A stretch of 60,319 nt of DNA, from IMG/VR virus record IMGVR_UViG_2870495154_000003; one strand, given 5' to 3'. This stretch comes from a virus (Duplodnaviria > Heunggongvirae > Uroviricota > Caudoviricetes). The notes beneath the pieces were generated by a model that did not search any database, was not told the origin of the DNA, and worked only from the letters and a program-made list of their open reading frames with translations. Made by a program: the position numbers and the translations under genes. This document shows, piece after piece, positions 1 through 16,548 of the stretch (position 1 is the stretch's first letter; every line of letters starts with the position of its first letter).

Positions 1-90
1 GGTCATGGCCTCCATAGTGATGGCGGGTCCTCCTTGTGGGGTGCCCTGCCACGGGGCGGGAGCATCGCGGAAAAAGGCTAGTTTTTGCAT
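1..90 (-). CDS. Hypothetical protein, 5' fragment (start codon at 88..90; remainder lies before the window)
   Basis: Identical to the 5' end of ORF 10203..10577 (MQKLAFFRDAPAPW...). Confidence 0.4.
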   Translation of the reverse strand, partial: MQKLAFFRDAPAPWQGTPQGGPAITMEAMT

Positions 91-251
91 TTTTATTCGT
101 CATCACCACCAATGCAATATATTGATATGACTTGATGTTTTATTTTTCGGTGTCGATTTCGATTGTTTTTTGTTCATCACTGACGCATAACGCCCACCAG
201 CGCAACGCTGAAAGCCAGTCAGTAAACTGGCTTAGGTCATTGTGCACTACG

Positions 252-794
252 TTACTTGTCTTTATCCGACTGAAACTTATCAGGCACATTTCCGGTAGTT
301 TCCATCAGATAATCGGACAGCATTCGCGGGATGTTTTCATCAAGTTTTGTGCATGCGTTACAGGCTCTGACAACTTCTTTTTTCAGGCCATCCAGCATGG
401 CGGGGGTCATCTGTGGGAAGCTCCTTTGCATAGTAAGCGGCAGGCTGCCCATGATTGAAGAAATCTGACTCGCCAGTTTTGAAAGCGCATATATACAAAA
501 TTCCGTACTAATCACATCGCCGCGTTCGCGCTCGTTTTTAAGCTCCTGCGCCTCCGCCTGCGCTGTCAGCAATCTGATCCTGACTCGCAAAAGCTCATCA
601 TTATCAATCTCGCCTTTGTCGTCTGTAATCTGGTTAATTGCATTGCTAACCCGATTGTCTATTACGCTGGCAACATCATAAAACGCCTCGCGGCCTTTAC
701 GTTCAACGGGAGTCACTCCCCACTTGTCGAACGCTGTCGCACTTACACGGCAGCTTTGCGCCATGTTTTTTTTGTTCATCAGGTGCGATTTCAT
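252..794 (-). CDS. Terminase small subunit, lambda Nu1-like
   Basis: ORF 252..806 trimmed to the ATG at 792..794, which has a GGGGA SD 5 nt upstream (an ATG at 777..779 is an alternative). C-terminal half matches recalled lambda Nu1 (RLTxAQAxAQELKN..., FC, LPLxxQRxFP); the N-terminal DNA-binding region is diverged. Sits immediately downstream of a lambda-type cos. Confidence 0.8.
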   Translation of the reverse strand: MKSHLMNKKNMAQSCRVSATAFDKWGVTPVERKGREAFYDVASVIDNRVSNAINQITDDKGEIDNDELLRVRIRLLTAQAEAQELKNERERGDVISTEFCIYALSKLASQISSIMGSLPLTMQRSFPQMTPAMLDGLKKEVVRACNACTKLDENIPRMLSDYLMETTGNVPDKFQSDKDK

Positions 795-879
795 CAATAT
801 CCCCACTTAAGTAATGTTTCAGGTTGGTGTATTGGCTTTATCTTTTCCTTTTTATTCATAGAGATAGAGCGAACAACAA

Positions 880-995
880 AACCACCACCAGCACCCGAAA
901 AAGGCTCATAAATAGCGAAAACCCGCGAGGTCGCCGCCCCGTAACCTACCGGATCGCCGGAAAGGACCCGCCAGCCAGAACGGGCCCTAATTTCA
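880..995 (-). other. cos site region; cosN 12-nt cohesive-end sequence at 928..939
   Basis: Minus strand reads CGGGTCCTTTCCGGCGATCCGGTAGGTTACG-GGGCGGCGACCT-CGCGGGTTTTCGCTATTTATGA, matching recalled lambda cos (right end, cohesive end, left end) with a few substitutions in the cosQ-proximal part; sequence diverges beyond ~35 bp on the TerS side. Recurs in every copy (cosN at 11415, 21898, 32385, 42872, 53359). Confidence 0.8.
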
Positions 996-1379
996 TCAAC
1001 CAATCAACTTATAGCGACCATCCCGTGCATTGCGACGTACACGCTCAATCTTGAGGCATAGCGCCGCATCTGGCTTTTTTGGGACAGGTACGCGGCAATA
1101 TTCAGAAGCTCGAGGAATATTGTTTATCCAGTCGATCACTTCACTTAAATACCAGGCCTTACGCCCTTTCGTAACCTGTACGCGTTCGGGGAACTCTCCG
1201 CGAGCCTCAAGGTTTAGCAATGTGCGACGGCTAAGGGTAGTAAGTTCCATCACCTGATTCATATCAACAAGGCGTTCACTTAAACGCATTTTGTCAGCAA
1301 TAGCCTTTAATTCCTCTACTGCTGGATCCGGATACATCATTTCGGCAATTGGCTTAAGGTCATTGTAATGATTCTGCAT
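996..1379 (-). CDS. AlpA/Xis-like helix-turn-helix DNA-binding protein (127 aa)
   Basis: ORF with GGGGGA SD 5 nt upstream; central motif LTTLSRRTLLNLEARGEFPERVQVTKGRKAWYLSEVIDWI resembles AlpA-family HTH. Lies between the decoration gene and cos/TerS. Confidence 0.6.
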   Translation of the reverse strand: MQNHYNDLKPIAEMMYPDPAVEELKAIADKMRLSERLVDMNQVMELTTLSRRTLLNLEARGEFPERVQVTKGRKAWYLSEVIDWINNIPRASEYCRVPVPKKPDAALCLKIERVRRNARDGRYKLIG

Positions 1380-1390
1380 TGTATCCCCCT

Positions 1391-1732
1391 TTACACACGA
1401 GCCAGCGGCTGAACAGAAATACCTGAGCCAACAAACGCGGCAACCTTTGCCGACAGTTCTTTTACAGACTCAGGCCAGTTCAGAGCATCAACATTTAAAA
1501 CACCTGTCTTATAAACCTGTGCCTGTGTTTTTTTCGCTGTGTCGATTTGTACAGCGGAAACATAAACCGCTTTACCTACGCTCGAACCATCCCATACCAC
1601 CAGTGCACCTGTTGCATCTTCCTGCATCAGTGGCGTAAATGCAGGAATTACCCCTTTATTAGCTGAAAATATCCCCAGCGTAGTCACCAGTGCTTCAGTG
1701 CCAGCCATGAGTTCAGTGTAATGAGTAGCCAT
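1391..1732 (-). CDS. Head decoration protein, lambda gpD-like (113 aa)
   Basis: Collinear similarity to recalled lambda gpD (PAFTPLM / PAMTPLM, LVVWDG / LVAWDG, YKTG / YKSG, NWPE / LWPE, AFVGSGIS / AFAGTAIS). Starts 10 nt after the capsid gene stop. Confidence 0.75.
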   Translation of the reverse strand: MATHYTELMAGTEALVTTLGIFSANKGVIPAFTPLMQEDATGALVVWDGSSVGKAVYVSAVQIDTAKKTQAQVYKTGVLNVDALNWPESVKELSAKVAAFVGSGISVQPLARV

Positions 1733-1741
1733 TGCTCCCCC

Positions 1742-2788
1742 TTAGCCAATGCGAACGGTAACAAAACGATTGATGCGGGCCGGTATTGGCTGTGGTGCTG
1801 AATGTGTCTGCACATATTCAATAGCCGGATCACCAGGCACAATATAGTTTTTCGGTGCAAGTTCGGCTTTAGTCAGCCCCATTCGGATTAGCTCCGGATC
1901 CTGAATACCGCCATAGGCGACAATCCCCTGAAGAGCCGTATTGCCAAGCACCATCAAATCAGGATCAAGGAAATGTTTTTCTGTTCCGTCCTCGTCGGTA
2001 TAACGCCCGCTGTAAACAACAATCGCAACATCGCCCATATACCCTTTAAAACTCACCGAATCACCAAGGTCTTTAAGGGCCGTTTCCAGTTCGGAATTAG
2101 AACCACGACGGGTATCCAAAGCCTCTTTTATCGCTCTGAATGAACGGTATTTCTTCCATACATTACCACCCATAATGATGATATTAGTGACGCCCTCACT
2201 AAATTCTGCGTAGCTCTCAATATCATCATTTGGATCAAAAGTTTCTTTATCCTTACCTGACCACTCAGTACCGCCAGACTGAGTGATGATATTTTGTGGT
2301 TTTATATTCCAGTCCAGCTCATAACGTTCAATACCATCGCCCTCAATGATATTTTTCCCCGTTGTGATTGCCTGAACAGCAAGCCATTCAATACGTGCAC
2401 GAATAGCTTTAGCCTGATTTACAATCGCCTGTTTAACTTTAATATTACGCGCCCCAAAAGCATTGTATTGCTCAGGTGACACACCAGCAGGGCGCACAGC
2501 TAACTTATTTGGATCAATGCTGCTTTTCGGCTTCATATAACCTGGACGAATTGTTTTTGATTCGTATCCCTCATCTCGTGAAACTTTACTGCCCACCATA
2601 GGAGAGCAAAACGCCGCGATCGGGATATTTGGATCGTCGATCGTATCAAGAATAATGTCTCTCGATTCAAACATTACCGAGCGAGTGAAAAACAAACTGG
2701 TAAACAACGCATTTAATTTTTTTTGCACATCTTCAGCATTAGCCACCTGCACAAGCTGTGTAGGCGAATATAAATCAACCATACTCAT
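1742..2788 (-). CDS. Major capsid protein, lambda gpE-like (348 aa)
   Basis: ORF 1742..2869 trimmed to the ATG at 2786..2788 (MSMVDLY..., AAAGAGG SD adjacent; lambda E begins MSM). Motifs NIITQSGGTEWSGKDKETFDPNDDIESYA, DTRRGSNSELETALKDLG, GDVAIVVYSG, MVLGNT, QSAP match recalled lambda gpE. Confidence 0.85.
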   Translation of the reverse strand: MSMVDLYSPTQLVQVANAEDVQKKLNALFTSLFFTRSVMFESRDIILDTIDDPNIPIAAFCSPMVGSKVSRDEGYESKTIRPGYMKPKSSIDPNKLAVRPAGVSPEQYNAFGARNIKVKQAIVNQAKAIRARIEWLAVQAITTGKNIIEGDGIERYELDWNIKPQNIITQSGGTEWSGKDKETFDPNDDIESYAEFSEGVTNIIIMGGNVWKKYRSFRAIKEALDTRRGSNSELETALKDLGDSVSFKGYMGDVAIVVYSGRYTDEDGTEKHFLDPDLMVLGNTALQGIVAYGGIQDPELIRMGLTKAELAPKNYIVPGDPAIEYVQTHSAPQPIPARINRFVTVRIG

Positions 2789-2953
2789 CCTCTTTACATT
2801 CATTACAAATAATTGTGAATATATTCTATTACCGATGTCTGCTATGCGAATACATGCAACCAAGTGCAATGTTGTATAAAATATGCCGTAACAACTTCAG
2901 TGCTGATAATTCGTGTTAATGTATTTACTTCCTTTGGTCGGGATTTATGTAGC

Positions 2954-2995
2954 ATGCCGGAAAATCTATTTTTTTCCGGCATCTTTTTGTTTGCA
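2954..2995 (+). terminator. Intrinsic-terminator-like hairpin (11-bp stem ATGCCGGAAAA / TTTTCCGGCAT, 7-nt loop) followed by CTTTTTGTTTG
   Basis: Read directly from the sequence. The T-tract follows the stem only on the plus strand; on the minus (gene) strand the hairpin sits 17 nt after the ssb stop with no U-tract. Confidence 0.5.
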
Positions 2996-2999
2996 GAAT

Positions 3000-3422
3000 T
3001 TAAAACGGTATATTATCGCCGTACGGATCATCATTCCCCGACTGTTGTTTTGCCCTGTTCAGTGCGTCAGTGGCCTGCCCCTGCTGGCCTTTTTTGCCGC
3101 CCGGTCGCGCCGTTCGCGCACTGATTACACTGTCTGCGATAACCTGCCAGCCCTGCCGCGTTTCGCCGTTCTGGCCTGTCCACTGGCTTACCTGCATGTT
3201 ACCCGCCACGCTCACCAATTCGCCTTTGTGGTGTTTTGCCAGTGCGTCGGCCTGTCTGCCAAACGCCAGGACGGATAACCACATCGTCGCCGTTCCGTCA
3301 TCTGCCTGGCTGCACGGCAGGGGAACCGCCATACTCGCCATCGCCATTTGTGTCCCTTTGCTGGTGGTCTTTAACTGCGGGTCAGCCACCAGCCGCCCGT
3401 AAGCCGCTATCTGTGCTGTCAT
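3000..3422 (-). CDS. ssb: Single-stranded DNA-binding protein (140 aa)
   Basis: OB-fold-like core (WLSVLAFGRQADALAKHHKGELVSVAGNMQVSQWTGQNGETRQGWQVIADSV), Gly/Gln-rich linker and acidic C-terminal tip DDPYGDNIPF, comparable to E. coli SSB ...DFDDDIPF. ATGA overlap with the upstream ORF. Confidence 0.8.
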   Translation of the reverse strand: MTAQIAAYGRLVADPQLKTTSKGTQMAMASMAVPLPCSQADDGTATMWLSVLAFGRQADALAKHHKGELVSVAGNMQVSQWTGQNGETRQGWQVIADSVISARTARPGGKKGQQGQATDALNRAKQQSGNDDPYGDNIPF

Positions 3423-3664
3423 GCTGTCTGCTCTCCGGTTTTAACGTTGATGGTTGTCACCTGTTCCGCTTCGGCAATCTCCCGTTCTGTCAGCGTGGCA
3501 AAGTTTGCAGCTGCCGTTGTCATGAATGAGCTAATCAGTTCGGGATGTGCTTTCGCATATCCTTCCCCGGCGTTGCGGTCGATGATTTTTATCGACACCC
3601 TTAACCAGTGTTCCGTCAAATCAAGGGCGTGCGATTGTGATTTTTTTGTGTGCTTCGCTGTCAT
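3419..3664 (-). CDS. Hypothetical protein (81 aa), translationally coupled to ssb
   Basis: ORF in track; its stop overlaps the ssb start (ATGA). No recognisable motif. Confidence 0.45.
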   Translation of the reverse strand: MTAKHTKKSQSHALDLTEHWLRVSIKIIDRNAGEGYAKAHPELISSFMTTAAANFATLTEREIAEAEQVTTINVKTGEQTA

Positions 3665-3712
3665 AGGCTTTATCTCACAGCAGTAAATTAAAATTTTTGC
3701 GTTTTAACCCTT

Positions 3713-3937
3713 CACCTGTTCACCTTTTGATATTTTATCTTTTAATTCATAATGTTAAGGGGTGAACAGTTTCACAAAAACTATTCACCAACTGTTCACC
3801 ACTGTTCACCCTTGAAGCTCAATAAACAATCAAAAAGGTGAACAGTGAATAGTTTGGTGAACAGTTCATAAATAACTGTTCACCCTATAACATACTGATA
3901 CAAAAGATATTTATGACAGGGTGAACAGTGGTGAACA
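3713..3937. repeat. Iteron cluster / putative replication origin: about 9 copies of GGTGAACAG in both orientations in AT-rich DNA
   Basis: GGTGAACAG or CTGTTCACC at roughly 3716, 3762, 3793, 3803, 3838, 3859, 3877, 3919 and 3929, directly 3' of the primase-helicase gene. Recurs in every copy. Confidence 0.7.
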
Positions 3938-3951
3938 GTTATTCCATAAGT

Positions 3952-5769
3952 TTAATTTTTGCTATCGTCATTAGTGACCGATACACATGATGGCATCCAG
4001 TCTTCTGATTCCTCCGTCAGTGTCACGTTTGAACGCAAACCGTGCTTCGTTTTCCGTTTCATATACTCCCTGCCATATTCCGCCATTGCCCCCGGCATAT
4101 CTTTACCGAAGCGCGTCAGTGTTACAGGTTTACCAAACCCATGTGCCTTCATATAAGCCAGATAGGCATGATAGAGATACCTGCGCGGGCTGAATGGCAC
4201 AATTTCAGCATTACCCACTAACAGGCCATCACACATTACCGACGCCATGAGATAGCCGCAGAAGTCCACCAGCGAATCACCTTCACGCTTTATCGCGAGT
4301 GCTTCTTCTGATTTCTGCTGCTCATATAAAAGGCGTCTGGCTTCGTCCTGGTCAGCAAACCGTGTAAGCAGATGACGAATCACTACCGCCAGCTCACCTT
4401 CTATTTTTTCCGCCAGCATTGAATCGCGTTCGTTCTCCGGTACAACTTCCGAAAAATTGAATATCACCCGACGGCGCGAGATCCCCCCACTGCGGTCACT
4501 GAATGACATAGCGTTATTGTTAACCGCCAGCACTACTGCCGGGATACGCGTTGAATATGGGGCTTTATGTTTTGGGTCGATTGCCACCTTGTCACCGCCT
4601 GTAATAGCCTTAATTCCCGCCCCATCACCAGCGTAGCGGGTCATATCCGGCATGATAATCAGCGAAAAGCCAACCACTAACGCGCGTTCCCTTGCATCTT
4701 CCAGCGCCTTCATGCTCGCTGATACTGTATTAGCCTTACCCGCCAGCATGGTGCAAATCTCCGCCATCACGCTTTTACCACTTCCCCCTGGACCTGTTAC
4801 CTCAATGAATAACTGCCAGTCGTACCGGTTCGCCAGCACCATGAATAATGCAGCCAGTACGCGATCCGCCTTGCGGTCATTCTCAGCCACCGAACGGCGT
4901 AACCACTTCCAGAAATTCGGCGCATGTGTTGCCAGCGTTTCCCCCTCTGCTGGTGGGCTGAAAGGTAATTCACTGGCAATTAACAACCAGTCGTTTTTGT
5001 TATGCTCCCGAAAATTACCTGTTCTGGTATCAAATACCCCGTTACTGAATCCAATCAGGTTACGGGCTGTATTCCCCATTACAGGCAAACTTAACTTCAT
5101 GGTATCGACCGCCGATTTAATGGCGTTCTGCGAATAGCTGATCTCCGCATCAATGAAAATCTGTGCCATAGCTCGCTGTAATTCTTTATCCTGTACTGGC
5201 TCCCATACAACGCCGTTGTAATGGTGAACAGTGTCAGAGTCAGCATGAATCGCCAGTTCACCGCCATAATGTGCCAGGAGAACTTCGCCGCGTTGACTTG
5301 CTCCCATCTGGTTAAGCGCCAGTGATGAAGCGTTATCGTCTTTTACCCGCTCTTTTTTCTTTACAGGCAGTTCAACTACCTTTTTCTTTTCCGCCAGCTC
5401 TCCCCGCTCACGTTCCAGATATTCGCGCCAGTTCTCCCGTTTCTGGCTGTGCATTCCTTCAGGGTAATAATCAGCATCCCTGACACCTGCCGCTGCCAGT
5501 TTCTGCCCGATGGTATTAACAAGCCCCGGACGCAATAACCCCGCCTGGTAGAGACGCACGCGATAGCGTCCGTCCGGTACGATTTGCAGGTTGTCCAGTT
5601 CGGCAAGTTGTTGCTCTCCAAGCCAGACAGGTGGCACGTTATCGCCAGCCAGTCGCCCGTCCTGTTCCTGCCACTGCGTCGCATGTGCCCACGCATCACT
5701 ACCCGCAAAAATGATGACTTCCGTCATTTTGTCACGCGGCTGGTGTTTTAAATTTGGCGCTTTTTTCAT
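3952..5769 (-). CDS. Primase-helicase, P4-alpha / D5-type (605 aa)
   Basis: ORF 3952..5784 trimmed to the ATG at 5767..5769 (GGAGAGAG SD; ATGA overlap with upstream ORF). Walker A GPGGSGKS in the C-terminal NTPase region; overall layout typical of satellite/PICI primase-helicases. Confidence 0.85.
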   Translation of the reverse strand: MKKAPNLKHQPRDKMTEVIIFAGSDAWAHATQWQEQDGRLAGDNVPPVWLGEQQLAELDNLQIVPDGRYRVRLYQAGLLRPGLVNTIGQKLAAAGVRDADYYPEGMHSQKRENWREYLERERGELAEKKKVVELPVKKKERVKDDNASSLALNQMGASQRGEVLLAHYGGELAIHADSDTVHHYNGVVWEPVQDKELQRAMAQIFIDAEISYSQNAIKSAVDTMKLSLPVMGNTARNLIGFSNGVFDTRTGNFREHNKNDWLLIASELPFSPPAEGETLATHAPNFWKWLRRSVAENDRKADRVLAALFMVLANRYDWQLFIEVTGPGGSGKSVMAEICTMLAGKANTVSASMKALEDARERALVVGFSLIIMPDMTRYAGDGAGIKAITGGDKVAIDPKHKAPYSTRIPAVVLAVNNNAMSFSDRSGGISRRRVIFNFSEVVPENERDSMLAEKIEGELAVVIRHLLTRFADQDEARRLLYEQQKSEEALAIKREGDSLVDFCGYLMASVMCDGLLVGNAEIVPFSPRRYLYHAYLAYMKAHGFGKPVTLTRFGKDMPGAMAEYGREYMKRKTKHGLRSNVTLTEESEDWMPSCVSVTNDDSKN

Positions 5770-6059
5770 TTCTGCTCTCTCCACGCGGCAATCATGTTTT
5801 TCAGTTCCTGTAGTTTTTTATCCACACGTGACACATGGTTATTTCTGGAAAGCGGGATTTCCCGCCTGAATCTGCTAATAAAGATCTCCACGTTCAGCGA
5901 ACTATGAAATGAATAGCCATCACGAATAAAATAAACACGGTCAAACATCAGTTCTTTTACCGTTACTCTGTTACCGTTCTTATCCAGATAAATAGCGCCG
6001 GGGATAATTTTTGGGTGTGCATAACCGCTGGCAGTCAAGCCAGATAAATATGTTCTCAT
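5766..6059 (-). CDS. Hypothetical protein (97 aa), translationally coupled to primase
   Basis: ORF in track; stop overlaps the primase ATG; GGGGA SD upstream. Confidence 0.5.
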   Translation of the reverse strand: MRTYLSGLTASGYAHPKIIPGAIYLDKNGNRVTVKELMFDRVYFIRDGYSFHSSLNVEIFISRFRREIPLSRNNHVSRVDKKLQELKNMIAAWREQK

Positions 6060-6065
6060 GATTAT

Positions 6066-6386
6066 TTATCCCCGATTTGAATCAGTATTCGCTTTCTTTA
6101 TGGCATTTAATGCATCTGTGGCATTTTCAATGGTGCACCGTAACGAAATATCAAACTGCCCAAGCATTGCCAGTAACAAGCCAATATTCCCCATGTCAAT
6201 GCGCATAGCCTTTTCGTCATATTCCTCATTTTCTGACGCATGCCACATCAGGCTACCAATTGACGCAACAGCCATTGATATATTGTCAGTAGCCCCATCC
6301 GCAGCGGAATAAACCTTTTTAGCAATATCATGCTCACAGTTAAAATGCGGATTAATCAGGTACTGGTAATTTGACATATCAGGCAT
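6066..6386 (-). CDS. Hypothetical protein (106 aa, [15 protein letters not shown]...)
   Basis: C-terminal part of ORF 6066..6821; the upstream part of that ORF is Pro/Arg/Leu-rich and looks off-frame. ATG at 6384..6386 overlaps the stop of the upstream ORF (ATGCCTGA). Confidence 0.45.
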
Positions 6387-6918
6387 GGCACACCCCCTGG
6401 CGAATACGGGCGGCGAATACAGCAACACAACCGGACGGGCAGCGGTTACGCGCTTCACGTTCCGTCCAGGCGGTGACGTGGATGATTTGATGGTCTGACG
6501 CGCCAAAGATGATAAAGCGCCAGAGAAAGGCGGTTTGAGAATGTACAAGGGTAGGGATAGTAGCCATGTTGGCAGCCTCCTTTGACAGTGAAGAATTTCC
6601 ACCGCAGGAAACGCCAATTTCGCTGGCGGTGGACTGAACGGGGTTGGCGTAACCGGCGTCAAAGGGAACCGGCGCTTCCGAAGAAGCCCCCGCCCAGCCC
6701 ACCATAACTTTGATGTGAGCGAATGCGGACGATAAAAAAGACGCTGGCGCGTCATATATCGCCTTTGACATTTCCAGGACGCCAATCCCGGCACCAGATT
6801 TTGCTGGTGCGGATAAATCATAGCCCTGGCTTGCAGTGGCGATCAACTGGTTTTTTACACCCGCTTTATTCAGGTTGTGCGAGTCCCGCCCTTGCGGGTG
6901 TGTGGTATGATTTCTCAT
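6379..6918 (-). CDS. Hypothetical Ala/Gly/Ser-rich protein (179 aa; alternative 62-aa start at 6567 with AGGAGG SD)
   Basis: 3' part of the 429-aa ORF 6379..7668; in-frame ATG at 6916..6918 with GAGG SD, just beyond the divergent operator region. Confidence 0.3.
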
Positions 6919-7015
6919 AGCGACCTCGATACTATCGTTATCGTTGGTGGTTAGAAGCCCCGTTACTGCTCCAACAGTGCGGGGTTTCGTCGTTTCTGCA
7001 CCTTGCATCAACAAG

Positions 7016-7067
7016 GTGTTGAACACCAATGTAAACTCAGGTGTTGAACACGTCAAGTGTTGAACAC
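7016..7067. promoter_or_regulatory. Operator-like array: three copies of the 11-bp palindrome GTGTTGAACAC
   Basis: Sites at 7016..7026, 7041..7051 and 7057..7067, in the ~200-bp divergent intergenic region between minus-strand ORF start 6918 and plus-strand ORF start 7118. Recurs in every copy. Confidence 0.6.
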
Positions 7068-7117
7068 TTGTTTTTTTTCCTGCATACTGCATTTGTTTTT
7101 TGTGAGGGGTACACAAC

Positions 7118-7297
7118 ATGGCGACAAAAGCAGTAAACGCAAAATCACAAACAGTTGCGGCAAGGGTTCCGCATGAAGTTATGAACAATGTTGAGGCGGT
7201 AAAAATGCCTGGTGAAAGTACAGGGCAATTTGTAACAGCAGCATTAAAGCGAGAAGTTGAATACCGCCAGCGACGCAAGGCTAAAGAGCAAGAATAA
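7118..7297 (+). CDS. Small ribbon-helix-helix-like DNA-binding protein (59 aa), putative regulator
   Basis: Not in the ORF track (below 60 aa). ATG at 7118 with GAGGGG SD 7 nt upstream; translation [59 protein letters not shown]; directly downstream of the palindromic operators. Confidence 0.55.
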
Positions 7298-7354
7298 TCA
7301 CTATCAGCGCTGTGGTGTGAGGTACTCCGGCGCATTGCTTTACAGGTCGGCACT

Positions 7355-7564
7355 ATGAGCAAAAAATACCTATCCACTGAAGAGATTTTCGCAGAACAAC
7401 GAAGATTGCTTTTACAGAGCATTGTTGCACGCCAGAAAGAAAAGGCACACGCTAAACAAATGCCACCAAATACAGAACCAGCGCCTACAAAATTTGCGCT
7501 TGATGAGTTTCTCAATAAACAGCCCCGGGTAATGAAAGCTAACAGGAACCGCCCACCAGGCTGA
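7355..7564 (+). CDS. Hypothetical protein (69 aa)
   Basis: ORF in track, co-oriented with the RHH gene and followed by a plus-strand terminator. Confidence 0.4.
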
Positions 7565-7628
7565 TCACATTGCCCACCAGCCAGCAAATCGCTATGATGG
7601 CTGGGCTTATGTTTAGTGTATTCCCACT

Positions 7629-7660
7629 GGCGACCTCTGATCCGGGTCGCCTTTGTTTTA
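7629..7660 (+). terminator. Rho-independent terminator (GGCGACC-tctgatccg-GGTCGCC followed by TTTGTTTTATG)
   Basis: Read directly from the sequence; sits between the convergent plus-strand ORFs and alpA. Confidence 0.6.
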
Positions 7661-7678
7661 TGTGTCATATGCCCCCCT

Positions 7679-7888
7679 TTACGCTGCCTTGCCTGAATTA
7701 ATGCGATCCCGGCTTTTAACCCATTCCATAACCTCGGACAGCAGCCAACCTACAGAACGACCGCCCAGATTACGGCGTGACGGGAAATTCCCTTTTTTCT
7801 CCAGTTCATAGCGTGTAGTGCGACACACTCCAGTTAACTTACGACATTCATCCTCACGGATTACGCGATCTTCATTTATTTCACGCAT
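7679..7888 (-). CDS. alpA: AlpA-family prophage regulatory protein (69 aa)
   Basis: Motif [43 protein letters not shown] is typical of AlpA-family HTH regulators; lies downstream of int. Confidence 0.8.
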
Positions 7889-8307
7889 ACAAAAACCTAC
7901 ATAAAAAATTACGTATATAAACTTTTCTCTTAGCTGTAGATATATGAGATCGGATATTACTTAGATTCTTTTTTCACCTCTTAAATTAAAAACACAACCT
8001 TGCTAAAGGCTTTGTTCGCTAAGGTTCGTAGAAGCTCGTTAGTGTTTAAAATCGTGTCACGAGTTTTTAAGCGATGCAACAAAAAATGTCGTTATTTGGC
8101 ATTACGCTTGAATTATCTCATTAAAAACAAATAGATAAACCATCAAGTGTTGGAACAATCAAGAAACAGAGAATAAAAGTTCAGAAGAAGACATTCCAAT
8201 TTTTTGATGGTTGACATATATAAAGCGAAGATATTTGCAGATATTTTCCGATATTCTACGATTTATTCACGGCTGTAATCTCTTAAAGAAAAAACAGCCG
8301 TAATTTG

Positions 8308-9546
8308 TCAAGAATTTTGGGTGTAAATTCGCGGGGTCATAACAACGATTTTTTCATCATTGTTCTGGAGAAGCTCGAGACGGTCTACCCATAGATTAAG
8401 AGCATCACGTTTTGCATCAAGATAACGGGAGTGGTTATAGACTCGTTGCATCCCCGGCATCTGGTGGGCGGTAAGCTGCTCGACAATATGCGGATCCACG
8501 CCTAAATCGTTCAGCATGGTTGTAAATGTGTGCCGGATGTCATGCAACGACCAGGGGGCTTGATTAATGCGTCTGTGTGCCGTTCTTCCGTACTCTGCTA
8601 CGGATGATTGCCCTTTCAGTTCTCCAAGCAATAAGCCCGTGTGCCTGTTCTTCTCCACCAGCTTCATGACAAACGGCAAGATCGCTTCCGGTATTGGCCT
8701 GAATATTGCTACCTTCGTTTTGCTGTGTTCTTTCGGCACAGTCCAGAGCATTTCTTTAAAATCCCATTCCTGAACCTCGGAGCGTCTTAGCTCAGTGGTA
8801 CGGCATCCAAAGACAATCAGAAGGCGAATTAAGGCGCTGTAGTACGGCGGGAAAATTTTTTCATCCAGTGCGCGGAGTAGCTCGCCAAGCTCCTTGTTTG
8901 TTAGCACTCGCTCGCTTATTTCTGCTTTTTTTCCCACATCACCTACGACCATATCATCAAGAACGTTACTGACGGCGTAGCGACGTTTACGGCAGTACTT
9001 AAGCGCCTGCTTGCATACCTGCAACAAAAAGCCGGCTGATACCGGATTACGCTTAGCAAGCTGGTCAAAACAGGCCAGCCAGTGGCGTAGCTCGCATTTA
9101 TCCAGCGGCATAGCACCAATCTGGCTGATTATGTGCTTATTGATACGGCTTTTCAGTGATTCGTGGTCAGTGCGCTTTTCCTTCGCATACGACTCAAGCC
9201 AGTAAGTGAGCGCGTCCTTAACCGTCACAGGGGCTAACGCTTCCTGCACTGTGTGATTAAGCTCATGGCGTGGATTTTTCCCCTCCGCCAGCCAGGCGCG
9301 ACACTGTGCCGCTTTTTCCCTGGCTGCTTTCAGGCTCAGATCGGGATAGTTGCCCAGTCTCAGGCGTTCCGGTGATACCTGCCTGCCAGTTCCGGCCCTG
9401 TAAGTGAAATACCAGGTTAACAGGCCGCTGGTGGAATGTCTTACGCTAAGATTGCCACCGTCATTAAAAAAGGCGTTTTTTGTGGTTGGTGATCCGCTTA
9501 ATTTTCGTAAAAGAGTGTCGCTAAGTCTATGAATTGCGCTGCTCAT
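8308..9546 (-). CDS. int: Tyrosine recombinase / integrase (412 aa)
   Basis: C-terminal catalytic region with R...HxxR...Y signature (RTAHRR..., HDIRHTFTTML..., MQRVYNHSRYL); P4-like length and layout. Confidence 0.9.
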   Translation of the reverse strand: MSSAIHRLSDTLLRKLSGSPTTKNAFFNDGGNLSVRHSTSGLLTWYFTYRAGTGRQVSPERLRLGNYPDLSLKAAREKAAQCRAWLAEGKNPRHELNHTVQEALAPVTVKDALTYWLESYAKEKRTDHESLKSRINKHIISQIGAMPLDKCELRHWLACFDQLAKRNPVSAGFLLQVCKQALKYCRKRRYAVSNVLDDMVVGDVGKKAEISERVLTNKELGELLRALDEKIFPPYYSALIRLLIVFGCRTTELRRSEVQEWDFKEMLWTVPKEHSKTKVAIFRPIPEAILPFVMKLVEKNRHTGLLLGELKGQSSVAEYGRTAHRRINQAPWSLHDIRHTFTTMLNDLGVDPHIVEQLTAHQMPGMQRVYNHSRYLDAKRDALNLWVDRLELLQNNDEKIVVMTPRIYTQNS

Positions 9547-9573
9547 GTTTCGCGTTTCCGGTCATCAAAATTA

Positions 9574-9645
9574 ACTACACCATTGACTACACCGTGCATC
9601 GTACAAGGGCAAACCGTGACGAACAATATCGAACAACCGCGAACA
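9574..9645. promoter_or_regulatory. Direct repeats upstream of int: ACTACACC x2 (9574, 9586) and CGAACAA x3 at 10-bp phasing (9619, 9629, 9639)
   Basis: Read directly from the sequence, 30-100 bp upstream of the int start codon. Confidence 0.4.
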
Positions 9646-9987
9646 AAGATCAACACGCTTTAATCATTATCATTTTCCGGCTATCCGTCATGAAGCTGGT
9701 GGATGATCTGCGTGGTGATTTCCACCATTCAGAGCAGGGGCGGTCATCATGACCATGCCATAACAAAAACCCCATATTCGTGGTTTTTCTGTGTCGGGGC
9801 TATTCTGCTGTTGCCGTGCTGGTGGATATTCTCCGGTATGCGGCTCCCCATATCGGCATCAGGCCCACCAGCGTGAAGCGTTTTTCATTTTTCGCGGGTA
9901 TAAAAAATCGATGGGGCTGGCAGTCCTGAAGACGTCAGGGTACAGAGATTTGACCCGCCCCTCCCTGTGCATGAGCACAATAAGTAA

Positions 9988-10011
9988 CCGAAGGCGGAAT
10001 TCCGCCCTCGG
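9988..10011. other. Perfect 14-bp palindrome GGCGGAATTCCGCC within an imperfect 24-bp inverted repeat
   Basis: Read directly from the sequence, in the non-coding region between the 124-aa ORF and int. Confidence 0.5.
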
Positions 10012-10073
10012 TACTTACATATGAGAAACGATATTTCTTCCACCGATACCCTTTATTTGGGTATTGCGAGTAA

Positions 10074-10152
10074 GCCCCAAAATCTGGGTGTTACTCTTAC
10101 TACCCAAACTACGGGTAGTTTCCGTAGTTTCATGGTCGAGTTGCAAATCTGC
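10074..10152. other. Cluster of three consecutive stem-loops (9-bp stem AAACTACGG / CCGTAGTTT; 6-bp GTTGCA / TGCAAC; 7-bp AACGCAA / TTGCGTT)
   Basis: Read directly from the sequence; 50-130 nt beyond the stop of the minus-strand ORF 10203..10577. Confidence 0.45.
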
Positions 10153-10202
10153 AACTCACCCACCAGCCAACGCAATTTTGCGTTATCGGGAATATCAGCA
10201 AG

Positions 10203-10577
10203 TTACCGCCGCAGTCGTTCCGGCTTCTTCCACTGGTAAGTATTTTTCGCGCTCTCCCTCCGTTGTTGAGAACGGCGACGGTATGCCAGCAACTCAAGGA
10301 CTCTGGTTCGTATGTTGCGCATATCCACGCCGTTAAGCTCAATACCATCACGGCGCATCACCTCAGCAACAACACGCGCGTAATTTTCGGCTATCACGCT
10401 GTCCGGCTGCGTGGCCTCCTGTTCGCCAGCCTGCTGGCTGATTCCGGTAATACTGCGGATTATCCCGAGCGCTTCGGTCTCGGTCATGGTCATGGCCTCC
10501 ATAGTGATGGCGGGTCCTCCTTGTGGGGTGCCCTGCCACGGGGCGGGAGCATCGCGGAAAAAGGCTAGTTTTTGCAT
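10203..10577 (-). CDS. Hypothetical protein (124 aa; probable true start at 10485..10487 giving 94 aa)
   Basis: ORF in track, last gene downstream of TerS on the minus strand. GGAGG SD is best spaced (8 nt) for the third in-frame ATG (MTETEALGIIR...). Confidence 0.4.
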   Translation of the reverse strand: MQKLAFFRDAPAPWQGTPQGGPAITMEAMTMTETEALGIIRSITGISQQAGEQEATQPDSVIAENYARVVAEVMRRDGIELNGVDMRNIRTRVLELLAYRRRSQQRRESAKNTYQWKKPERLRR

Positions 10578-10738
10578 TTTTATTCGTCATCACCACCAAT
10601 GCAATATATTGATATGACTTGATGTTTTATTTTTCGGTGTCGATTTCGATTGTTTTTTGTTCATCACTGACGCATAACGCCCACCAGCGCAACGCTGAAA
10701 GCCAGTCAGTAAACTGGCTTAGGTCATTGTGCACTACG

Positions 10739-11281
10739 TTACTTGTCTTTATCCGACTGAAACTTATCAGGCACATTTCCGGTAGTTTCCATCAGATAAT
10801 CGGACAGCATTCGCGGGATGTTTTCATCAAGTTTTGTGCATGCGTTACAGGCTCTGACAACTTCTTTTTTCAGGCCATCCAGCATGGCGGGGGTCATCTG
10901 TGGGAAGCTCCTTTGCATAGTAAGCGGCAGGCTGCCCATGATTGAAGAAATCTGACTCGCCAGTTTTGAAAGCGCATATATACAAAATTCCGTACTAATC
11001 ACATCGCCGCGTTCGCGCTCGTTTTTAAGCTCCTGCGCCTCCGCCTGCGCTGTCAGCAATCTGATCCTGACTCGCAAAAGCTCATCATTATCAATCTCGC
11101 CTTTGTCGTCTGTAATCTGGTTAATTGCATTGCTAACCCGATTGTCTATTACGCTGGCAACATCATAAAACGCCTCGCGGCCTTTACGTTCAACGGGAGT
11201 CACTCCCCACTTGTCGAACGCTGTCGCACTTACACGGCAGCTTTGCGCCATGTTTTTTTTGTTCATCAGGTGCGATTTCAT
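10739..11281 (-). CDS. Terminase small subunit, Nu1-like (copy B)
   Basis: Identical translation to 252..794. Confidence 0.8.
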   Translation of the reverse strand: MKSHLMNKKNMAQSCRVSATAFDKWGVTPVERKGREAFYDVASVIDNRVSNAINQITDDKGEIDNDELLRVRIRLLTAQAEAQELKNERERGDVISTEFCIYALSKLASQISSIMGSLPLTMQRSFPQMTPAMLDGLKKEVVRACNACTKLDENIPRMLSDYLMETTGNVPDKFQSDKDK

Positions 11282-11482
11282 CAATATCCCCACTTAAGTA
11301 ATGTTTCAGGTTGGTGTATTGGCTTTATCTTTTCCTTTTTATTCATAGAGATAGAGCGAACAACAAAACCACCACCAGCACCCGAAAAAGGCTCATAAAT
11401 AGCGAAAACCCGCGAGGTCGCCGCCCCGTAACCTACCGGATCGCCGGAAAGGACCCGCCAGCCAGAACGGGCCCTAATTTCA

Positions 11483-11866
11483 TCAACCAATCAACTTATA
11501 GCGACCATCCCGTGCATTGCGACGTACACGCTCAATCTTGAGGCATAGCGCCGCATCTGGCTTTTTTGGGACAGGTACGCGGCAATATTCAGAAGCTCGA
11601 GGAATATTGTTTATCCAGTCGATCACTTCACTTAAATACCAGGCCTTACGCCCTTTCGTAACCTGTACGCGTTCGGGGAACTCTCCGCGAGCCTCAAGGT
11701 TTAGCAATGTGCGACGGCTAAGGGTAGTAAGTTCCATCACCTGATTCATATCAACAAGGCGTTCACTTAAACGCATTTTGTCAGCAATAGCCTTTAATTC
11801 CTCTACTGCTGGATCCGGATACATCATTTCGGCAATTGGCTTAAGGTCATTGTAATGATTCTGCAT
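11483..11866 (-). CDS. AlpA/Xis-like HTH protein (copy B)
   Basis: Identical translation to 996..1379. Confidence 0.6.
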   Translation of the reverse strand: MQNHYNDLKPIAEMMYPDPAVEELKAIADKMRLSERLVDMNQVMELTTLSRRTLLNLEARGEFPERVQVTKGRKAWYLSEVIDWINNIPRASEYCRVPVPKKPDAALCLKIERVRRNARDGRYKLIG

Positions 11867-11877
11867 TGTATCCCCCT

Positions 11878-12217
11878 TTACACACGAGCCAGCGGCTGAA
11901 CAGAAATACCTGAGCCAACAAACGCGGCAACCTTTGCCGACAGTTCTTTTACAGACTCAGGCCAGTTCAGAGCATCAACATTTAAAACACCTGTCTTATA
12001 AACCTGTGCCTGTGTTTTTTTCGCTGTGTCGATTTGTACAGCGGAAACATAAACCGCTTTACCTACGCTCGAACCATCCCATACCACCAGTGCACCTGTT
12101 GCATCTTCCTGCATCAGTGGCGTAAATGCAGGAATTACCCTTTATTAGCTGAAAATATCCCAGCGTAGTCACCAGTGCTTCAGTGCCAGCCATGAGTTCA
12201 GTGTAATGAGTAGCCAT
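11878..12217 (-). pseudogene. gpD-like decoration gene, frameshifted in copy B
   Basis: Two 1-bp deletions in C-runs (near 12139 and 12160) relative to other copies; the track shows only a 78-aa ORF 11878..12114. Confidence 0.6.
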
Positions 12218-12225
12218 TGCTCCCC

Positions 12226-13271
12226 TTAGCCAATGCGAACGGTAACAAAACGATTGATGCGGGCCGGTATTGGCTGTGGTGCTGAATGTGTCTGCACATA
12301 TTCAATAGCCGGATCACCAGGCACAATATAGTTTTTCGGTGCAAGTTCGGCTTTAGTCAGCCCCATTCGGATTAGCTCCGGATCCTGAATACCGCCATAG
12401 GCGACAATCCCTGAAGAGCCGTATTGCCAAGCACCATCAAATCAGGATCAAGGAAATGTTTTTCTGTTCCGTCCTCGTCGGTATAACGCCCGCTGTAAAC
12501 AACAATCGCAACATCGCCCATATACCCTTTAAAACTCACCGAATCACCAAGGTCTTTAAGGGCCGTTTCCAGTTCGGAATTAGAACCACGACGGGTATCC
12601 AAAGCCTCTTTTATCGCTCTGAATGAACGGTATTTCTTCCATACATTACCACCCATAATGATGATATTAGTGACGCCCTCACTAAATTCTGCGTAGCTCT
12701 CAATATCATCATTTGGATCAAAAGTTTCTTTATCCTTACCTGACCACTCAGTACCGCCAGACTGAGTGATGATATTTTGTGGTTTTATATTCCAGTCCAG
12801 CTCATAACGTTCAATACCATCGCCCTCAATGATATTTTTCCCCGTTGTGATTGCCTGAACAGCAAGCCATTCAATACGTGCACGAATAGCTTTAGCCTGA
12901 TTTACAATCGCCTGTTTAACTTTAATATTACGCGCCCCAAAAGCATTGTATTGCTCAGGTGACACACCAGCAGGGCGCACAGCTAACTTATTTGGATCAA
13001 TGCTGCTTTTCGGCTTCATATAACCTGGACGAATTGTTTTTGATTCGTATCCCTCATCTCGTGAAACTTTACTGCCCACCATAGGAGAGCAAAACGCCGC
13101 GATCGGGATATTTGGATCGTCGATCGTATCAAGAATAATGTCTCTCGATTCAAACATTACCGAGCGAGTGAAAAACAAACTGGTAAACAACGCATTTAAT
13201 TTTTTTTGCACATCTTCAGCATTAGCCACCTGCACAAGCTGTGTAGGCGAATATAAATCAACCATACTCAT
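12226..13271 (-). pseudogene. gpE-like major capsid gene, frameshifted near its 3' end in copy B
   Basis: 1-bp deletion in a C-run near 12419; ORF 12372..13352 has an altered C-terminus (...ALQGLSPMAVFRIRS) versus other copies. Confidence 0.6.
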
Positions 13272-13482
13272 CCTCTTTACATTCATTACAAATAATTGTG
13301 AATATATTCTATTACCGATGTCTGCTATGCGAATACATGCAACCAAGTGCAATGTTGTATAAAATATGCCGTAACAACTTCAGTGCTGATAATTCGTGTT
13401 AATGTATTTACTTCCTTTGGTCGGGATTTATGTAGCATGCCGGAAAATCTATTTTTTTCCGGCATCTTTTTGTTTGCAGAAT

Positions 13483-13905
13483 TTAAAACGGTATATTATC
13501 GCCGTACGGATCATCATTCCCCGACTGTTGTTTTGCCCTGTTCAGTGCGTCAGTGGCCTGCCCCTGCTGGCCTTTTTTGCCGCCCGGTCGCGCCGTTCGC
13601 GCACTGATTACACTGTCTGCGATAACCTGCCAGCCCTGCCGCGTTTCGCCGTTCTGGCCTGTCCACTGGCTTACCTGCATGTTACCCGCCACGCTCACCA
13701 ATTCGCCTTTGTGGTGTTTTGCCAGTGCGTCGGCCTGTCTGCCAAACGCCAGGACGGATAACCACATCGTCGCCGTTCCGTCATCTGCCTGGCTGCACGG
13801 CAGGGGAACCGCCATACTCGCCATCGCCATTTGTGTCCCTTTGCTGGTGGTCTTTAACTGCGGGTCAGCCACCAGCCGCCCGTAAGCCGCTATCTGTGCT
13901 GTCAT
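13483..13905 (-). CDS. ssb: Single-stranded DNA-binding protein (copy B)
   Basis: Identical translation to 3000..3422. Confidence 0.8.
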   Translation of the reverse strand: MTAQIAAYGRLVADPQLKTTSKGTQMAMASMAVPLPCSQADDGTATMWLSVLAFGRQADALAKHHKGELVSVAGNMQVSQWTGQNGETRQGWQVIADSVISARTARPGGKKGQQGQATDALNRAKQQSGNDDPYGDNIPF

Positions 13906-14147
13906 GCTGTCTGCTCTCCGGTTTTAACGTTGATGGTTGTCACCTGTTCCGCTTCGGCAATCTCCCGTTCTGTCAGCGTGGCAAAGTTTGCAGCTGCCGT
14001 TGTCATGAATGAGCTAATCAGTTCGGGATGTGCTTTCGCATATCCTTCCCCGGCGTTGCGGTCGATGATTTTTATCGACACCCTTAACCAGTGTTCCGTC
14101 AAATCAAGGGCGTGCGATTGTGATTTTTTTGTGTGCTTCGCTGTCAT
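13902..14147 (-). CDS. Hypothetical protein 81 aa (copy B)
   Basis: Identical translation to 3419..3664. Confidence 0.45.
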   Translation of the reverse strand: MTAKHTKKSQSHALDLTEHWLRVSIKIIDRNAGEGYAKAHPELISSFMTTAAANFATLTEREIAEAEQVTTINVKTGEQTA

Positions 14148-14434
14148 AGGCTTTATCTCACAGCAGTAAATTAAAATTTTTGCGTTTTAACCCTTCACCT
14201 GTTCACCTTTTGATATTTTATCTTTTAATTCATAATGTTAAGGGGTGAACAGTTTCACAAAAACTATTCACCAACTGTTCACCACTGTTCACCCTTGAAG
14301 CTCAATAAACAATCAAAAAGGTGAACAGTGAATAGTTTGGTGAACAGTTCATAAATAACTGTTCACCCTATAACATACTGATACAAAAGATATTTATGAC
14401 AGGGTGAACAGTGGTGAACAGTTATTCCATAAGT

Positions 14435-16252
14435 TTAATTTTTGCTATCGTCATTAGTGACCGATACACATGATGGCATCCAGTCTTCTGATTCCTCCGT
14501 CAGTGTCACGTTTGAACGCAAACCGTGCTTCGTTTTCCGTTTCATATACTCCCTGCCATATTCCGCCATTGCCCCCGGCATATCTTTACCGAAGCGCGTC
14601 AGTGTTACAGGTTTACCAAACCCATGTGCCTTCATATAAGCCAGATAGGCATGATAGAGATACCTGCGCGGGCTGAATGGCACAATTTCAGCATTACCCA
14701 CTAACAGGCCATCACACATTACCGACGCCATGAGATAGCCGCAGAAGTCCACCAGCGAATCACCTTCACGCTTTATCGCGAGTGCTTCTTCTGATTTCTG
14801 CTGCTCATATAAAAGGCGTCTGGCTTCGTCCTGGTCAGCAAACCGTGTAAGCAGATGACGAATCACTACCGCCAGCTCACCTTCTATTTTTTCCGCCAGC
14901 ATTGAATCGCGTTCGTTCTCCGGTACAACTTCCGAAAAATTGAATATCACCCGACGGCGCGAGATCCCCCCACTGCGGTCACTGAATGACATAGCGTTAT
15001 TGTTAACCGCCAGCACTACTGCCGGGATACGCGTTGAATATGGGGCTTTATGTTTTGGGTCGATTGCCACCTTGTCACCGCCTGTAATAGCCTTAATTCC
15101 CGCCCCATCACCAGCGTAGCGGGTCATATCCGGCATGATAATCAGCGAAAAGCCAACCACTAACGCGCGTTCCCTTGCATCTTCCAGCGCCTTCATGCTC
15201 GCTGATACTGTATTAGCCTTACCCGCCAGCATGGTGCAAATCTCCGCCATCACGCTTTTACCACTTCCCCCTGGACCTGTTACCTCAATGAATAACTGCC
15301 AGTCGTACCGGTTCGCCAGCACCATGAATAATGCAGCCAGTACGCGATCCGCCTTGCGGTCATTCTCAGCCACCGAACGGCGTAACCACTTCCAGAAATT
15401 CGGCGCATGTGTTGCCAGCGTTTCCCCCTCTGCTGGTGGGCTGAAAGGTAATTCACTGGCAATTAACAACCAGTCGTTTTTGTTATGCTCCCGAAAATTA
15501 CCTGTTCTGGTATCAAATACCCCGTTACTGAATCCAATCAGGTTACGGGCTGTATTCCCCATTACAGGCAAACTTAACTTCATGGTATCGACCGCCGATT
15601 TAATGGCGTTCTGCGAATAGCTGATCTCCGCATCAATGAAAATCTGTGCCATAGCTCGCTGTAATTCTTTATCCTGTACTGGCTCCCATACAACGCCGTT
15701 GTAATGGTGAACAGTGTCAGAGTCAGCATGAATCGCCAGTTCACCGCCATAATGTGCCAGGAGAACTTCGCCGCGTTGACTTGCTCCCATCTGGTTAAGC
15801 GCCAGTGATGAAGCGTTATCGTCTTTTACCCGCTCTTTTTTCTTTACAGGCAGTTCAACTACCTTTTTCTTTTCCGCCAGCTCTCCCCGCTCACGTTCCA
15901 GATATTCGCGCCAGTTCTCCCGTTTCTGGCTGTGCATTCCTTCAGGGTAATAATCAGCATCCCTGACACCTGCCGCTGCCAGTTTCTGCCCGATGGTATT
16001 AACAAGCCCCGGACGCAATAACCCCGCCTGGTAGAGACGCACGCGATAGCGTCCGTCCGGTACGATTTGCAGGTTGTCCAGTTCGGCAAGTTGTTGCTCT
16101 CCAAGCCAGACAGGTGGCACGTTATCGCCAGCCAGTCGCCCGTCCTGTTCCTGCCACTGCGTCGCATGTGCCCACGCATCACTACCCGCAAAAATGATGA
16201 CTTCCGTCATTTTGTCACGCGGCTGGTGTTTTAAATTTGGCGCTTTTTTCAT
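14435..16252 (-). CDS. Primase-helicase (copy B)
   Basis: Identical translation to 3952..5769. Confidence 0.85.
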   Translation of the reverse strand: MKKAPNLKHQPRDKMTEVIIFAGSDAWAHATQWQEQDGRLAGDNVPPVWLGEQQLAELDNLQIVPDGRYRVRLYQAGLLRPGLVNTIGQKLAAAGVRDADYYPEGMHSQKRENWREYLERERGELAEKKKVVELPVKKKERVKDDNASSLALNQMGASQRGEVLLAHYGGELAIHADSDTVHHYNGVVWEPVQDKELQRAMAQIFIDAEISYSQNAIKSAVDTMKLSLPVMGNTARNLIGFSNGVFDTRTGNFREHNKNDWLLIASELPFSPPAEGETLATHAPNFWKWLRRSVAENDRKADRVLAALFMVLANRYDWQLFIEVTGPGGSGKSVMAEICTMLAGKANTVSASMKALEDARERALVVGFSLIIMPDMTRYAGDGAGIKAITGGDKVAIDPKHKAPYSTRIPAVVLAVNNNAMSFSDRSGGISRRRVIFNFSEVVPENERDSMLAEKIEGELAVVIRHLLTRFADQDEARRLLYEQQKSEEALAIKREGDSLVDFCGYLMASVMCDGLLVGNAEIVPFSPRRYLYHAYLAYMKAHGFGKPVTLTRFGKDMPGAMAEYGREYMKRKTKHGLRSNVTLTEESEDWMPSCVSVTNDDSKN

Positions 16253-16542
16253 TTCTGCTCTCTCCACGCGGCAATCATGTTTTTCAGTTCCTGTAGTTTT
16301 TTATCCACACGTGACACATGGTTATTTCTGGAAAGCGGGATTTCCCGCCTGAATCTGCTAATAAAGATCTCCACGTTCAGCGAACTATGAAATGAATAGC
16401 CATCACGAATAAAATAAACACGGTCAAACATCAGTTCTTTTACCGTTACTCTGTTACCGTTCTTATCCAGATAAATAGCGCCGGGGATAATTTTTGGGTG
16501 TGCATAACCGCTGGCAGTCAAGCCAGATAAATATGTTCTCAT
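16249..16542 (-). CDS. Hypothetical protein 97 aa (copy B)
   Basis: Identical translation to 5766..6059. Confidence 0.5.
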   Translation of the reverse strand: MRTYLSGLTASGYAHPKIIPGAIYLDKNGNRVTVKELMFDRVYFIRDGYSFHSSLNVEIFISRFRREIPLSRNNHVSRVDKKLQELKNMIAAWREQK

Positions 16543-16548
16543 GATTAT

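Follow-up and report, generated by a model that had tools for sequence, protein, structure and literature searches.

The 60,319-nt stretch of Caudoviricetes DNA analysed here (IMG/VR record IMGVR_UViG_2870495154_000003, hereafter the window) is a tandem array of a 10,487-bp element that is very probably a classical Gram-negative phage-inducible chromosomal island (PICI) of the EcCICFT073 family, its genes for a lambda gpE-like major capsid protein (MCP) and a gpD-like decoration protein (Dec) being the usual capsid module of that family. The element carries the features by which PICIs are recognised, namely an integrase, alpA, a primase with an iteron origin, an MCP gene and terS with a cos site, all within a size of about 10-20 kb and with no other structural or lysis genes. 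A preliminary description, made from the sequence alone, had set the element apart from PICIs, which it took to be capsid-less. This claim of unusualness is wrong, because the capsid gene is a published, core marker of enterobacterial PICIs. Indeed, EcCICFT073, the prototype of the Gram-negative PICIs, was reported in 2018 to encode the capsid protein c1499 and the head decoration protein c1500 (PMC6092414), and 21 of the 29 reference Gram-negative PICIs have a major capsid gene (PMC10111431). Moreover, two of the five core PICI components in SatelliteFinder are capsid morphogenesis and terS, and of the 375 'Type A' elements in which it found every core component, 97% are from E. coli (PMC10085698). 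The capsid homologue of EcCICFT073, together with packaging in normal-size capsids, has also been pointed out in a review (PMC6893505). The combination of capsid and decoration genes without other head genes is already known, having been published for the prototype in 2018.

The two genes in question lie side by side:

1742..2788, minus strand, lambda gpE-type (HK97-fold) major capsid protein homologue (MCP), 348 aa, identified by Pfam, PHROG, PDB and gpE alignment
1391..1732, minus strand, gpD/SHP-type head decoration protein homologue (Dec), 113 aa, WP_000190771.1, identified by Pfam, PHROG and PDB

The MCP (WP_000228106.1 in RefSeq, where the model starts at 2782 and has 346 aa) matches Pfam PF03864 Phage_cap_E at E=3.8e-41 over profile positions 4-327 of 329 and PHROG 29, 'major head protein', at 4e-91. 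Its best solved match is PDB 3BQW, the 'putative capsid protein of prophage' (1e-121), and the cryo-EM chain of lambda gpE, 7VI9, is found at 9e-78; the alignment with gpE runs end to end with 42% identity and ten gap positions. Similarly, Dec matches Pfam PF02924 HDPD (4e-15) and PHROG 49, 'head decoration' (6e-26), its nearest solved relative being the phage 21 SHP protein (1TD0, 4e-16), followed by lambda gpD (8e-12), with which it aligns over the full length at 38% identity. The solved structures of close homologues settle the fold of both proteins. The assignment of the pair to gpE- and gpD-type homologues by the preliminary description therefore holds, and so does the order that it reported, E then D, unlike lambda, where D precedes E. 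This order was found in the window and is common to all three relatives whose loci were read.

The assignment to the EcCICFT073 family rests on synteny. We located EcCICFT073 in the chromosome of E. coli CFT073, where its genes run Icd, DUF4222, primase, hypothetical, single-strand DNA-binding protein (SSB), PerC, hypothetical, MCP, Dec and hypotheticals of 137, 144 and 93 aa (hyp137, hyp144 and hyp93), syntenic with the unit of the window. Protein identities between the two elements are 55% for the MCP (c1499), 54% for Dec (c1500), 70% for SSB, 86% for the 81-aa hypothetical, 49% for the primase and 71% for the last open reading frame (ORF). The capsid protein c1499 itself matches PDB 3BQW over its full length (6e-241), and the 144-aa protein of EcCICFT073 is an Rpp homologue (PDB 6HLK, 5e-31). 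About 36 kb downstream of EcCICFT073, next to icd, the CFT073 chromosome also holds a prophage (locus L004, 44744-50000) with a lambda-type cosN, TerS, TerL, portal and S49 protease; this prophage is presumably 'phage 4', the known helper, and its TerS is 33% identical to that of the window.

The 10,487-bp unit is the whole element, with no parts lying outside the repeat. Two features define it:

1..60319, unstranded, tandem array of 5.75 copies of the 10,487-bp element, head to tail
9619..9636, unstranded, attP core ACGAACAATATCGAACAA; the integrated copy has it at attL/attR as an imperfect 18-bp repeat

Self-comparison places the unit starts at 1, 10488, 20971, 31458, 41945 and 52432. No substitution separates the copies, and the sole differences are six single-base indels in homopolymers, of which copy 2 has four. 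The window corresponds to the interior of an array of six copies in the chromosome assembly of E. coli CREC-629 (NZ_CP024815.1, about 3766482-3829417), which lies between clpS and yljB/cspD and has attP at its internal junctions; the copy whose MCP and Dec genes RefSeq flags there as frameshifted is copy 2 of the window, the one with missing C's. Given this match to a chromosomal array, including the frameshifted copy, we rejected the readings of the window as a virion-derived concatemer read, a plasmid or a metagenomic contig. The match, together with the clpS and yljB/cspD genes on the flanks, is also the reason why we take the unit as complete. The related genomes tell the same story: 78 complete E. 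coli genomes contain the unit with 100% identity, the usual form being one integrated copy (10,505 bp) between clpS and yljB/cspD, and the other genomes inspected have one copy, versus six in CREC-629. In strain NDM6, where the element differs from that of the window by three substitutions overall, these core chromosomal genes flank it directly, and the portal and TerL genes that the preliminary description had considered possible just outside the repeat are not there. Read at the junctions of the integrated copy, the att core is ACGAACAAtatCGAACAA, 18 bp and imperfect, located 70 bp upstream of the integrase gene. The clpS/cspD site was occupied by PICIs alone in the three genomes in which we inspected it, and the window contains no tRNA or tmRNA gene. 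The six-copy array may reflect a multimer that is truly integrated, or else long reads of an excised, replicating island may have been misassembled. One possibility is that it records the integration of a packaged multimer; in any case the array is compatible with an active element, of which it is no proof.

Apart from the capsid pair and the attachment site, the unit holds the following features, given for its first copy:

252..806, minus strand, small terminase (TerS); Pfam PF07471 1.2e-21, PHROG 57 1.5e-50, RefSeq start at 794
807..1000, minus strand, cos site; about 75 bp of cosQ/cosN near-identical to lambda, with cosN GGGCGGCGACCT at 928-939
996..1379, minus strand, second AlpA-family helix-turn-helix (HTH) protein, 127 aa; Pfam PF05930 1.8e-8, PHROG 2790, PDB 8C3T AlpA 1.5e-10
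3000..3422, minus strand, SSB; Pfam PF00436 4e-16
3419..3664, minus strand, conserved hypothetical protein, 81 aa; PHROG 1231, 86% identity to its EcCICFT073 counterpart
3716..3938, unstranded, probable replication origin; an AT-rich core surrounded by nine exact CTGTTCACC iterons that occur in both orientations
3952..5784, minus strand, D5-type primase-helicase (pri-rep); Pfam D5_N, DUF5906 and Pox_D5, PHROG 864 1e-191
5766..6059, minus strand, DUF4222 protein; Pfam PF13973 7e-17
6379..7119, minus strand, Ash/Icd-like regulator, 246 aa; Pfam Phage_ASH 8.5e-14, PHROG transcription regulators, RefSeq annotation
7679..7888, minus strand, AlpA regulator/excisionase; Pfam PF05930 2.9e-16
8308..9546, minus strand, tyrosine integrase; Pfam Phage_integrase and Arm-DNA-bind_3, PHROG 1
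10203..10487, minus strand, conserved hypothetical protein, 94 aa, the last gene of the late module; PHROG 1561, 71% identity to the last EcCICFT073 gene

The genes thus run in a single direction, from the integrase at one end of the element through the adjoining alpA, the Ash/Icd regulators, DUF4222, the primase-helicase, the origin, SSB, MCP, Dec, the HTH protein, cos and TerS to the 94-aa ORF, which bears out the int/alpA/primase-ori layout of a satellite that had been read from the sequence at first sight. The iteron origin lies directly 3' of the primase gene, an arrangement described for PICIs (PMC6092414), and CTGTTCACC has 60 matches in the whole window versus 0.43 expected. We profiled every called ORF of the unit against Pfam and PHROGs. 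The remaining ORFs give YlcI/YnfO and bring the small conserved hypotheticals to three, and the only ORFs of at least 250 aa are the MCP, the primase, the integrase and the Ash/Icd region. No portal, protease, scaffold, TerL, HNH, head-tail adaptor or connector, tail or lysis gene was found among the profiled ORFs of the unit, in agreement with the preliminary description, and the flanks are chromosomal. NCBIfam gave no match for the seven proteins scanned (TerS, the 127-aa HTH protein, Dec, the MCP and the three hypotheticals). The odd-looking long ORFs at 6066-7668 are explained by the region of the Ash/Icd regulator and by N-terminal extensions that are spurious. The window and CREC-629 both have an intact Ash/Icd-like ORF, while the NDM6 annotation shows a 62-aa Icd-like protein and an 'ash family' pseudogene in its place. 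The 127-aa HTH gene, which sits between the Dec gene and cos, was considered as an Rpp homologue and rejected, the PDB search finding it AlpA-like instead; its product may act as a late regulator or as an accessory protein that binds cos.

Two parts absent from the gene list of the preliminary description, the Nu1-like TerS (252-806) and the lambda-type cos (cosN at 928-939), suggest how the element may be packaged. The exact 12-nt lambda cosN, GGGCGGCGACCT, lies about 120 nt upstream of terS and occurs once per unit; a search allowing up to two mismatches found no second cos in the unit. The cosB on the terS side of cosN shows no likeness to lambda cosB and is shorter. TerS, located where EcCICFT073 has Rpp, matches the Nu1 profile over residues 68-151 only, corresponding to profile positions 78-161. 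Its C-terminal half is thus Nu1-like and its N-terminal DNA-binding part diverged, and a PDB sequence search with TerS retrieved neither the lambda Nu1 DNA-binding domain nor Rpp, which fits a diverged N-terminal domain. Overall, TerS is 35% identical to lambda Nu1, and the nearest phage TerS is N15 gp1 (46%). In lambda, the corresponding C-terminal part of Nu1 serves self-assembly and binding to gpA, the TerL (PMC6739421). Because the cosN is identical to that of lambda and the cosB is not, and because TerS combines a Nu1-like C-terminal half with a diverged N-terminal part, the sequence supports the idea that the satellite TerS recognises a private cosB and recruits a lambda-type TerL from the helper for cleavage at the lambda-type cosN.

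Set upon the observed parts list, att site, origin, cos site, TerS domain pattern, synteny and selection, the life cycle that we propose follows published EcCICFT073 and lambda biology. A lambdoid helper would switch on alpA, and the island would excise and then replicate from its own origin into concatemers. TerS would bind the private cosB through its diverged N-terminal domain and recruit the lambda-type TerL of the helper through its Nu1-like C-terminal half; TerL would cleave the lambda-identical cosN, and cos-to-cos multimers would be packaged. The heads would be built on the portal, protease and scaffold of the helper, four units making 41.9 kb, or 86% of lambda. Lambda heads accept roughly 78-105% of 48.5 kb, a range within which, by simple arithmetic, four units (41.9 kb) fall and five (52.4 kb) do not. 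The MCP and Dec most likely enter or modify such helper-based heads as capsid subunit and cement protein, and by analogy with the prototype they are probably not essential with every helper.

Whatever their exact role, the MCP and Dec genes are, judging from their sequence evolution, maintained, functional genes of the satellite lineage and not a recent or decaying capture, because the ratio of nonsynonymous to synonymous substitution rates (dN/dS) is about 0.08 for both, no phage MCP comes closer than 42% identity, the pair occurs widely and its E-D order is conserved. The ratios are simple Nei-Gojobori pairwise estimates against the PICI of strain Res13-Lact-PEB17-18 (locus L005), a relative at the same att site (window 1391-2788 being compared with L005 9002-10393), with the E. 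coli O157:H7 element left out. Dec gave 0.074, next to 0.067 for the integrase, 0.050 for the primase and 0.25 for TerS. Among 50,697 phage records, none has an MCP more than 42% identical, lambda being the best match. The E-D pair is found at a query coverage of at least 80% in 395 of 5,426 complete E. coli genomes, mostly with 95-100% identity, and the order E then D is kept among PICIs whose MCPs are only 55% identical.

Some results weigh against this picture of a maintained pair that serves in the head. The MCP ratio of 0.078 is approximate, as its dS of 1.39 is near saturation, even if its direction is still clear. The pair is also not strictly co-inherited, since the amino-acid identity to L005 is 84% for the MCP versus 96% for Dec. 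Most directly, deletion of either c1499 or c1500 in EcCICFT073 left both transfer and interference with lambda unchanged (PMC6092414), and a structural role of the MCP and Dec may therefore be conditional; in the literature on the function of capsid genes in Gram-negative PICIs, we found no later work that goes beyond 'no phenotype'. The uneven divergence extends to the whole element, which is a mosaic with respect to L005, with nucleotide identities of 92% for int-alpA, 95% for the replication region, 80% for MCP-Dec-HTH and 88% for TerS. Because the MCP is far more diverged from L005 than the adjacent Dec (dS 0.27), exchange of the MCP gene seems to have taken place without its Dec partner.

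Other roles for the pair can be imagined. The MCP and Dec might poison the head assembly of the helper, or stand in as a spare copy of the helper MCP, which we consider unlikely. PICIs generally do interfere with their helpers (PMC6092414, PMC6739421), but in EcCICFT073 this activity maps to Rpp and not to c1499/c1500 (PMC6739421, PMC6092414). Similarly, a 'backup intact copy' has been proposed for helper-embedded PICIs inserted in the helper E gene (PMC10111431), whereas the element of the window is integrated in the chromosome and not in a helper gene.

It is also tempting to speculate that the element redirects capsid size, its gpE/gpD-type pair co-assembling on the helper portal and scaffold, with Dec stabilising the satellite MCP, into smaller, satellite-specific heads (T=4, holding two 10.49-kb units) or into mixed shells of altered stability. 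Both genes are under strong selection, and precedents exist: capsid size is redirected in SaPIbov5 by Ccm, an MCP homologue; PmCI172, whose capsids are small, likewise has a gene for an MCP homologue (PMC6092414, PMC6893505); and according to the authors of SatelliteFinder the Type A PICIs rely on capsid modification (PMC10085698). The arithmetic looks attractive, as the capacity of a T=4 shell with the packing density of lambda would come to (4/7)^1.5 x 48.5 kb = 20.95 kb, to be compared with 2 x 10,487 = 20,974 bp; four units also fit a normal lambda head, however, so the size match does not discriminate. Moreover, the end-to-end alignment of the MCP with gpE, with its few gaps, leaves no obvious size-determining insertion or truncation, and EcCICFT073, with homologous genes, packages phage-sized DNA and tolerates the MCP and Dec deletions without effect (PMC6092414). 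On balance we doubt that such heads are made. If they were, the element would be an intermediate between PICIs that use helper proteins only and the capsid-forming PICIs (cf-PICIs), which supply the whole head.

The preliminary description had itself offered another way out, that the two genes are a captured lambdoid fragment. As a functionless capture or the remnant of a decaying prophage, this is very improbable. It would agree with the missing phenotype of these genes in the prototype (PMC6092414) and with the known capture of helper late genes by PICIs (PMC10111431), but it would not explain a dN/dS as low as that of the integrase and primase, genes that are intact in hundreds of genomes, a best phage match of only 42% identity, or a gene order that is reversed with respect to lambda yet kept among PICIs with 55%-identical MCPs. 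Finally, that the island is a cf-PICI building its own heads and taking only tails from the helper can be practically dismissed: it encodes an MCP, a decoration protein and TerS, but the profiled ORFs include no portal, protease/scaffold, TerL, HNH, head-tail adaptor or connector, and chromosomal genes adjoin it on both sides.

We therefore return to a helper-dependent PICI of the EcCICFT073 family with its usual capsid module. In gene content and architecture the element belongs to a published and widely catalogued satellite family, of which it is a routine member, and it carries little weight as a discovery. The sharper question, itself known, is why PICI homologues of capsid and decoration proteins are conserved as strongly as the integrase and primase, in a lineage not found in phage genomes and with no known phenotype. 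This variant alone is present in about 7% of complete E. coli genomes and, as a TerS-type member carried by carbapenem-resistant clinical strains, it would reasonably serve, next to EcCICFT073, as a second model for the role of the MCP and Dec.

Comparison with other systems places the element more precisely. Lambda gpE and gpD and the phage 21 SHP belong to the same protein families as the MCP and Dec of the window, Dec being closest to SHP. In lambda, however, the order is D-E and not E-D, and the neighbouring Nu3, C, B, W and A genes have no counterpart here. A defective lambdoid prophage was rejected on these grounds, as the Nu1-A-W-B-C-Nu3-D-E block, tail, lysis and immunity genes and late-gene remnants are absent; the only homologues of lambda late genes in the window are TerS, E and D, arranged as E, D, ..., cos, TerS and 35-42% identical to lambda. 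The satellite phage P4 resembles the element in its size of about 10-11 kb, its integrase, AlpA-type regulator, Ash, primase-helicase and cos site, and its exploitation of helper capsids. P4, in contrast, has Sid, Psu, Delta and a P2-like helper, whereas the element lacks these, has the MCP and Dec and, judging from its sequence, would use a lambda-like helper. A P4-like satellite was thus discarded, as no ORF matched Psu, Sid or Delta in Pfam or PHROGs and only int, alpA, Ash and the primase are held in common.

Among the satellites with capsid genes, SaPIbov5 (with Ccm) and PmCI172, like the element of the window, encode a homologue of the HK97-fold capsid protein of the helper without a portal or protease. 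Ccm alters the shape and size of the capsid, whereas for the E. coli PICI homologues neither a size change nor a phenotype has been found (PMC6092414, PMC6893505). The cf-PICI EcCIEDL933 has the same int/alpA/rep backbone as classical E. coli PICIs and encodes an MCP and TerS, as the window does, but cf-PICIs add portal, protease, TerL, HNH and head-tail adaptor/connector genes, none of which the element has, and form small capsids of their own.

The family of EcCICFT073 remains the closest frame. Like the element, the prototype has int, alpA, Icd/Ash, DUF4222, primase, origin, a hypothetical, SSB, MCP, Dec, a further gene, cos, a packaging-specificity gene and a 93-aa ORF (Fillol-Salom 2018, 2019), and in both a cosN identical to that of lambda is combined, just upstream of the specificity gene, with a different cosB. 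The differences lie in individual parts: a full Nu1-like TerS in the window versus Rpp in the prototype; an AlpA-family HTH protein versus an unrelated 137-aa hypothetical; one cos versus two, the second being inverted and downstream of rpp; an att site at clpS/cspD versus integration next to phoQ; and a PerC gene in EcCICFT073 that the element lacks. A PICI next to phoQ in E. coli O157:H7 (NZ_CP015842) shows the same order of MCP, Dec, the further gene, TerS and 93-aa ORF on a 10-11 kb int/alpA/replication backbone, with an MCP about 55% identical and a RepA-type helicase in place of the D5 primase. The PICI of strain Res13-Lact-PEB17-18 differs from the single-cos element in its second, inverted cos downstream of terS, and it shares with that element the clpS/cspD att site, an 84%-identical MCP and the same order of MCP, Dec, the further gene, TerS and 93-aa ORF.

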